Shown: positions 38,866 through 38,961 of the stretch, in pieces
Numbering within the stretch: the stretch's first letter is position 1
Layout of the letters: each line of letters starts with the position of its first letter
Source of the DNA: Escherichia coli
GTDB lineage: Bacteria > Pseudomonadota > Gammaproteobacteria > Enterobacterales > Enterobacteriaceae
Direction: 5' to 3' (one strand)
Assembly (NCBI RefSeq): GCF_045037415.1
Contig: NZ_CP173438.1
Length of the DNA stretch: 64,000 nucleotides
The notes under the pieces: model-generated
What the model was told of the DNA's origin: nothing
What the model saw: only the letters and a program-made list of their open reading frames with translations
Database searches by the model: none
Made by a program: the position numbers and the translations under genes

Positions 38866-38876
38866 TTTCCCCGTAA

Positions 38877-38908
38877 AGCGGCAACTTTATTGAGTTGCCG
38901 CTTTTTTG
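38877..38908 (+). terminator. rho-independent terminator downstream of pflA
   Basis: GCGGCAACT-ttatt-GAGTTGCCGC followed by TTTTTT. Confidence 0.7.
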
Positions 38909-38961
38909 TGCACAGAAAAGCAGAGTGTGAAACAGTAAGTTCACACTCTGCTTGAATTCAT

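Follow-up and report, generated by a model that had tools for sequence, protein, structure and literature searches.

Lineage-specific gene loss in pathogenic Escherichia coli and Shigella is known from the so-called 'black holes', or pathoadaptive deletions, such as that of cadA. In the RefSeq record of E. coli K-12 MG1655, the gene order at the locus studied here is ycaD (b0898), ycaM (b0899), ycaN (b0900), ycaK (b0901) and pflA (b0902), and the three genes in the middle are annotated as an APC-family permease (ycaM), a LysR-type regulator (ycaN) and an NAD(P)H oxidoreductase (ycaK). A shorter version of the locus is found in other E. coli such as O157:H7, where ycaM is followed by a 113-bp remnant of the 3' end of ycaN and then by pflA. 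Outside the genus, ycaD lies beside pflA in many Enterobacteriaceae, among them Enterobacter, Leclercia, Buttiauxella, Cedecea, Franconibacter and C. koseri. Here we analysed a stretch of 64,000 nucleotides of an E. coli genome (assembly GCF_045037415.1, contig NZ_CP173438.1; hereafter the window), in which ycaD and pflA are also immediate neighbours. The initial annotation of this DNA had compared it with a K-12 map in which ycaM, ycaN and ycaK stand between ycaD and pflA, and the MG1655 record bears this map out.

The genes of the window are ordered focA, pflB (35651-37933, + strand), pflA (+), ycaD (-), ycaC (+) and dmsCBA (-). The pflA gene (38125-38865, +) encodes a pyruvate formate-lyase 1 activating enzyme of 246 aa as annotated (NCBIfam NF008356, 2.9e-158), with the mechanical open reading frame starting at 38098, against the annotated start at 38125. 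This region is 100% identical to that of ST131 strain 5392, where it is annotated as pflA, and K-12 PflA matched the window at 100% in a tblastn search. The ycaD gene (38962-40110, -) encodes an MFS transporter of 382 aa that matches NCBIfam NF002962 (YcaD/PRK03633) over its full length (3.5e-220), and it is so annotated in the ST131 record identical to the window. Both genes are convergent, with their stop codons at 38863-38865 (pflA, +) and 38962-38964 (ycaD, -), and the spacer between them (38866-38961) measures exactly 96 bp; these coordinates agree with the initial annotation, in which the gap was 96 bp long and held the pflA terminator and a second strong hairpin. Over the 2.2 kb surrounding the junction described below, E. 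coli O25b:H4-ST131 strain 5392 and strain SK1144 both match the window with 100% identity, and ycaD adjoins pflA in the RefSeq ST131 record as well. We also observed a 750-aa open reading frame antisense to nearly all of pflB (window 35672-37924, -), which shares its codon register with that gene. The codon use of pflB, with TTA once and CTA and TCA never, leaves the complementary frame free of stops, and we rejected the antisense frame as a gene and regard it as a codon-bias 'shadow ORF' of pflB.

Comparison of the spacer with K-12 revealed that a segment of 3,228 bp (NC_000913.3 947,070-950,297; L001 7071-10298) is absent from the window and that 4 bp are found in its place. With a spacer of 3,320 bp in K-12 and of 96 bp in the window, the net loss is 3,224 bp, so that the loss claimed by the initial annotation is real and its estimate of about 3.5 kb has to be replaced by these values. 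BLAST and a base-by-base comparison showed that homology to K-12 stops at 38907 on the pflA side and restarts at 38912 on the ycaD side. The four bases of the deletion junction (38908-38911, GTGC) match nothing at either break point in K-12 or IAI39, and the junction reads TTTTTT-GTGC-ACAGAAAAGC. One break point lies just past the T-tract of the pflA terminator and the other 8-10 nt beyond the stem of the ycaD terminator, and the two terminators are now 18 nt apart, the last stem base of the former being 38901 and the first stem base of the latter 38920. We detected no microhomology at the K-12 break points (GCTTTTTTGT/TTCT... vs ...GGAAT/AAAAAAGC, with the break at the slash) and found no IS element, repeat or open reading frame at the junction. 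None of the hallmarks of mobile elements (an IS copy, a target-site duplication, att-like repeats or an integrase) was present there, and judging by its bases the junction does not look like the product of a mobile-element or site-specific event. As candidate sources of the filler GTGC, or of GTGCACAG, we considered TGCACA, which in K-12 lies some 60 bp inside the spacer between ycaD and ycaM, and GCACAG in ycaN; these matches were uninformative and were rejected, because we estimate that a sequence of 3.2 kb contains a 6-mer about 0.8 times at random.

The spacer contains two hairpins predicted to be intrinsic terminators. The first one, assigned to pflA (38878-38907, +), has a G+C-rich stem of 8 bp and a loop of 8 nt (GCGGCAAC at 38878-38885, loop TTTATTGA, GTTGCCGC at 38894-38901), and ends in a T6 tail at 38902-38907. 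Its stem begins 13 nt past the pflA stop codon, can be extended to 11-13 bp via A-U pairs and is directly followed by U6. The hairpin and its tail fold at -20.3 kcal/mol on the + strand (z = -5.7), and the hairpin is identical in K-12 and near-identical in O157:H7 and IAI39; it is the pflA terminator that the initial annotation had placed inside the spacer. The second one, predicted for ycaD (38918-38953, -), has a perfect stem of 12 bp, or 14 bp including the flanking A-U pairs, and a loop of 8 nt. Its arm GCAGAGTGTGAA at 38920-38931 pairs with TTCACACTCTGC at 38940-38951, and on the - strand, where it begins 10 nt past the ycaD stop codon and carries a U-rich tail, it folds at -21.9 kcal/mol (z = -5.0). 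K-12 has an identical stem between ycaD and ycaM, and six Escherichia lineages, namely O157:H7, E. albertii and four more that include the cryptic clades, keep the hairpin with wobble-type changes only. The tail reads UUUUCUGU in the window vs UUUUUUGUUU in K-12, a difference that includes a T-to-C change. Because of its distance from the ycaD stop codon, its U-rich tail, its identity in K-12 and its conservation in Escherichia, we take the second hairpin to be ycaD's own intrinsic terminator, neither made by the deletion nor tied to it. The second strong hairpin of the initial annotation therefore exists, but the register quoted for its right arm is one base off and it is simply the ycaD terminator.

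Both hairpins of the spacer are the same as those that flank the ycaMNK segment in K-12 and IAI39. Both also fit the description of rho-independent terminators, with a G+C-rich stem-loop and a U-tract just 3' of the stop codon on the coding strand, and both probably terminate transcription. The whole 96-nt spacer folds at -42.9 kcal/mol on the + strand and at -43.6 kcal/mol on the - strand, compared with a mean of about -19 for its shuffles (z = -7.7), none of the 200 shuffles folding as well; the secondary structure of the spacer is real and not due to chance. A consensus promoter/terminator scanner listed only the + strand reading of the second hairpin, and neither the pflA nor the ycaD terminator on its own coding strand. 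Working by hand from the scanner's stated rule, we attribute these misses to a limitation of the tool, the A-U extension of the stem consuming part of the T-tract, and for this reason the hairpins were folded directly. An Rfam scan of 38000-40400 at E <= 1 returned no RNA family, and the hairpins therefore do not belong to a known sRNA, riboswitch or REP-like family.

Analysis of 5,426 complete E. coli genomes distinguished three states of the locus. State A (ycaD-ycaM-ycaN-ycaK-pflA) was found in 3,316 genomes and state B (ycaD-ycaM, the 113-bp ycaN 3' remnant and pflA, as in O157:H7) in about 1,060, while state C (ycaD-pflA as in the window) was found in 1,051 genomes with a 2.2-kb query or in 1,046 with a 176-bp query. 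A megablast search with the 3.2-kb segment detected some ycaMNK DNA in 4,377 of the 5,426 genomes and none anywhere in the other 1,049, so that the genomes lacking ycaMNK and the 1,051 junction carriers are near-perfect complements. The junction and ycaMNK counts total 5,428, which means that at least two genomes belong to both sets, probably through tiny partial matches like that of NZ_CP029180.1. With about 1,050 of the genomes carrying ycaD beside pflA and the rest carrying ycaM with or without ycaN-ycaK, the arrangement is lineage-specific, as the initial annotation had proposed. That annotation had also considered that ycaMNK might be located elsewhere in this genome; tblastn with YcaM, YcaN and YcaK found no copy elsewhere in the 64-kb window, and the genome counts, with 1,049 genomes lacking any match, point the same way.

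Five genomes of four clonal backgrounds were aligned (the window, ST131, FDAARGOS_1260, FDAARGOS_1303 and E2348/69) and share the junction base for base, and ATCC 25922 shows a continuous match to the 176-bp junction query at 98.9%. The SNPs linked to the junction differ among ST131, FDAARGOS_1260, FDAARGOS_1303 and E2348/69. The junction is absent from strains 042, O55:H7/O157:H7, K-12 and REL606, and in IAI39 the full ycaM-ycaN-ycaK cluster is intact. We take ST131, ATCC 25922 (ST73) and E2348/69 to belong to phylogroup B2, 042 to D, O55:H7/O157:H7 to E, K-12 and REL606 to A, and IAI39 to F. We infer that the junction is restricted to the B2 lineage, all the named carriers that could be placed being B2 strains, and a few carriers in other phylogroups could result from recombination.

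Our survey also uncovered other rearrangements at or around this locus. An IS5-like ISKpn26 element is inserted in ycaN in NZ_OY754389.1, and NZ_CP029180.1 has an IS1B copy at the ycaMNK site with only 2% of the segment matching, an event distinct from the deletion of the window; these are two further independent disruptions at the same locus. Next to the deletion in E2348/69, the annotation gives dmsA an internal stop and marks ycaC as frameshifted (L092 7472-9916 and 11445-11988), which is more decay adjoining the deletion. In CP089930.1 ('E. coli' E69, YcaD 97%), AT-rich unrelated DNA follows ycaM on its 3' side (L007 8622 onward) and no pflA is present within the 8 kb available, the locus being interrupted by something large. 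The region 0.96-1.01 Mb of IAI39 and SMS-3-5 carries genes from another chromosomal region (L087/L089 and L088), presumably the one near 2.2 Mb in K-12. One break point in IAI39 falls in the interval from aqpZ to dusC, next to an IS110-family transposase, and the pfl region is found at 2.30 Mb; the layout of this strain suggests that a large segment, more than 1 Mb long, has been inverted.

The outgroups were surveyed by a YcaD scan with one genome per species, followed by tblastn with the K-12 proteins. The ycaM gene was found 3' of ycaD in E. albertii, in three cryptic Escherichia species and in Salmonella enterica subsp. arizonae and diarizonae, as well as in many Citrobacter, Kluyvera and Yokenella. 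Between ycaM and pflA, the non-coli Escherichia retain diverged remnants of the 3' ends of ycaN and ycaK; as the ycaN remnants of E. albertii and the cryptic clades show 74-89% identity, the cluster was present in the ancestor of the genus. The ycaN 3' remnants measure 103-157 bp across Escherichia (O157:H7 L003 6593-6801; L005, L006, L008 and L009), and at least three ycaN-ycaK junctions could be distinguished (103 to 1584, 157 to 1595 and 113 to ~1625, in K-12 ycaN-ycaK coordinates). These comparisons indicate that ycaN-ycaK existed in the Escherichia ancestor and was then lost independently at least three times. By parsimony, the presence of ycaM in the outgroups, the full cluster in IAI39 and the two K-12-type hairpins in the window make state C a derived deletion; the initial annotation had likewise spoken of an absence or deletion relative to K-12, and it is supported by ycaM in the sampled Escherichia and Salmonella and by the complete cluster of IAI39.

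Additional arrangements were noticed in the outgroups. Enterobacteriaceae bacterium 89 (L056 12100-13667) has homologues of ycaN-ycaK between ycaD and pflA, with 68% and 60% amino acid identity and without ycaM, and this is the only intact ycaN-ycaK outside E. coli in the survey; the arrangement suggests that ycaM and ycaN-ycaK are separable modules. In Salmonella diarizonae and arizonae the gap between pflA and pflB measures about 1.7 kb vs about 190 bp in E. coli (L015 5654-7338; L020 14249-15912), and we take it to be the site of the sopD2 islet. The ycaD-pflA spacer of C. koseri (GCCGGATAAG...CATCCGGC) looks like a REP-type element.

We are confident that ycaD and pflA became neighbours through a single old deletion of about 3.2 kb that removed ycaM-ycaN-ycaK, probably in a B2 ancestor, and was then inherited vertically. 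The starting point would have been an ancestor with ycaD-ycaM-ycaN-ycaK-pflA, as in K-12 and IAI39. A deletion in the B2 ancestor followed by vertical descent would be the simplest reading, all the named carriers that can be placed being B2. The break points fall just outside both flanking terminators, so that ycaD and pflA each keep a functional-looking terminator of their own, and the deletion trimmed the tail of the ycaD terminator from the K-12 form to that of the window. The mechanism could be illegitimate (non-homologous) end joining or replication slippage, because the junction has a 4-bp filler and no microhomology, IS element or repeat. The same junction in five aligned strains with differing linked SNPs argues for one old event and not for recurrence. 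We infer the direction of the event by parsimony, and regard a single event and this mechanism as probable.

The cluster could also have been lost in two steps, ycaN-ycaK first, as in O157:H7, and then ycaM together with the ycaN remnant. Since Escherichia shows at least three independent deletions of ycaN-ycaK, with differing junctions, and since about 1,060 E. coli genomes are in the ycaM-only state, a loss that began with ycaN-ycaK is plausible. However, the junction sequence of the O157 type (attccgcgctgcataaat...) leaves no trace in the window, and the full cluster of IAI39 in state A makes a single 3.2-kb step from the complete cluster the likeliest and more parsimonious course. The end product of one step or two is identical and the scar does not discriminate between them, and we consider the two-step course unlikely, although still worth bearing in mind.

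It is very improbable that the direct ycaD-pflA order is the original one and that the other E. coli lineages gained ycaM, alone or together with ycaN-ycaK, by insertion. This order is indeed native to the genera named at the outset, from Enterobacter to C. koseri, and the ycaMNK segment has a G+C content of 45.4% (42.8% in ycaK), below the 52% of ycaD and the 50% of pflA. The lower G+C is consistent with an accessory block gained deeper in the family, and the acquisition probably took place at such a deeper node. On the other hand, ycaM is present at this site, with species-level divergence, in every other Escherichia lineage sampled, namely phylogroups A, D, E and F of E. coli, E. albertii and three cryptic species, and Salmonella carries it too. 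The window spacer also has both K-12-type hairpins, identical to those of K-12, whereas in genera where ycaD and pflA are native neighbours both genes share one bidirectional terminator. Ancestral absence would then require independent identical insertions, or an insertion common to all lineages but one. As for an artefact of assembly or annotation, with ycaMNK collapsed or misassembled out of the window, there is next to no chance of it, since the same junction is present in over 1,000 complete genomes that were finished independently by many laboratories and the genomes of the junction type have no ycaMNK DNA anywhere.

Deletion of ycaN in K-12 was reported to increase the expression of ycaD and focA, to decrease that of ycaC and to abolish formate utilisation in a phenotype array (PMC9068703). 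Because of these effects it is conceivable that the loss of ycaMNK was adaptive and defined the lineage, by rewiring how extraintestinal-pathogenic B2 strains metabolise formate and pyruvate anaerobically, and if so the permanent loss of a regulator beside focA-pflB-pflA could alter the control of PFL/FocA in these strains. We nevertheless hold this to be quite unlikely, and the repeated loss of ycaN-ycaK in other Escherichia argues for relaxed selection rather than adaptation. The deletion of the window is an ordinary strain-to-strain presence/absence polymorphism that involves no new mechanism or element. The annotation of over 1,000 public genomes already shows the arrangement plainly, variation of this core/accessory kind is routine, and we found no explicit description of the ycaMNK deletion in the literature searched on ycaM, ycaN and ycaK. 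Although its practical importance is small, the junction could be used, by PCR or in silico, as a stable lineage marker covering about 19% of complete E. coli genomes, and it shows that the gene order of K-12 is not that of the whole species. On a small scale, the locus is a textbook example of how genes decay repeatedly, with at least three separate losses of ycaN-ycaK across Escherichia and one of ycaMNK. Studies on the control of ycaC, ycaD and focA by YcaN should consider that about 40% of sequenced E. coli are without this regulator.

The window shares with K-12 MG1655 the flanking genes, their orientation and both terminator hairpins, with ycaD showing 97-98% identity at the DNA level and pflA, pflB and focA 100% at the protein level. 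It differs in having 4 bp where K-12 has 3,228 bp, comprising ycaM, ycaN, ycaK and the intergenic DNA, and in the T-tract of the ycaD terminator (UUUUUUGUUU in K-12, UUUUCUGU in the window). The O157:H7-type locus is similar in that it also carries a derived deletion that ends near the pflA terminator and occurs at a similar frequency (about 1,060 genomes). In that type, however, only about 1.5 kb are gone (most of ycaN and all of ycaK), ycaM is kept, the junction is another one, and the ycaN 3' remnant of 113 bp is annotated as a pseudogene. Enterobacter, Leclercia and Buttiauxella resemble the window in having ycaD and pflA convergent with no gene between them. In these genera and in Cedecea, Superficieibacter and others, the spacer measures 36-50 bp and holds one shared bidirectional terminator (A-run, stem and T-run), unlike the window with its two separate hairpins in 96 bp. 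As in the 'black holes', a whole pathogenic lineage cleanly lacks a chromosomal block that K-12 possesses, but for ycaMNK there is no sign of adaptive loss or of an antivirulence role, and since ycaN-ycaK was repeatedly lost in non-pathogenic Escherichia, relaxed selection fits better.
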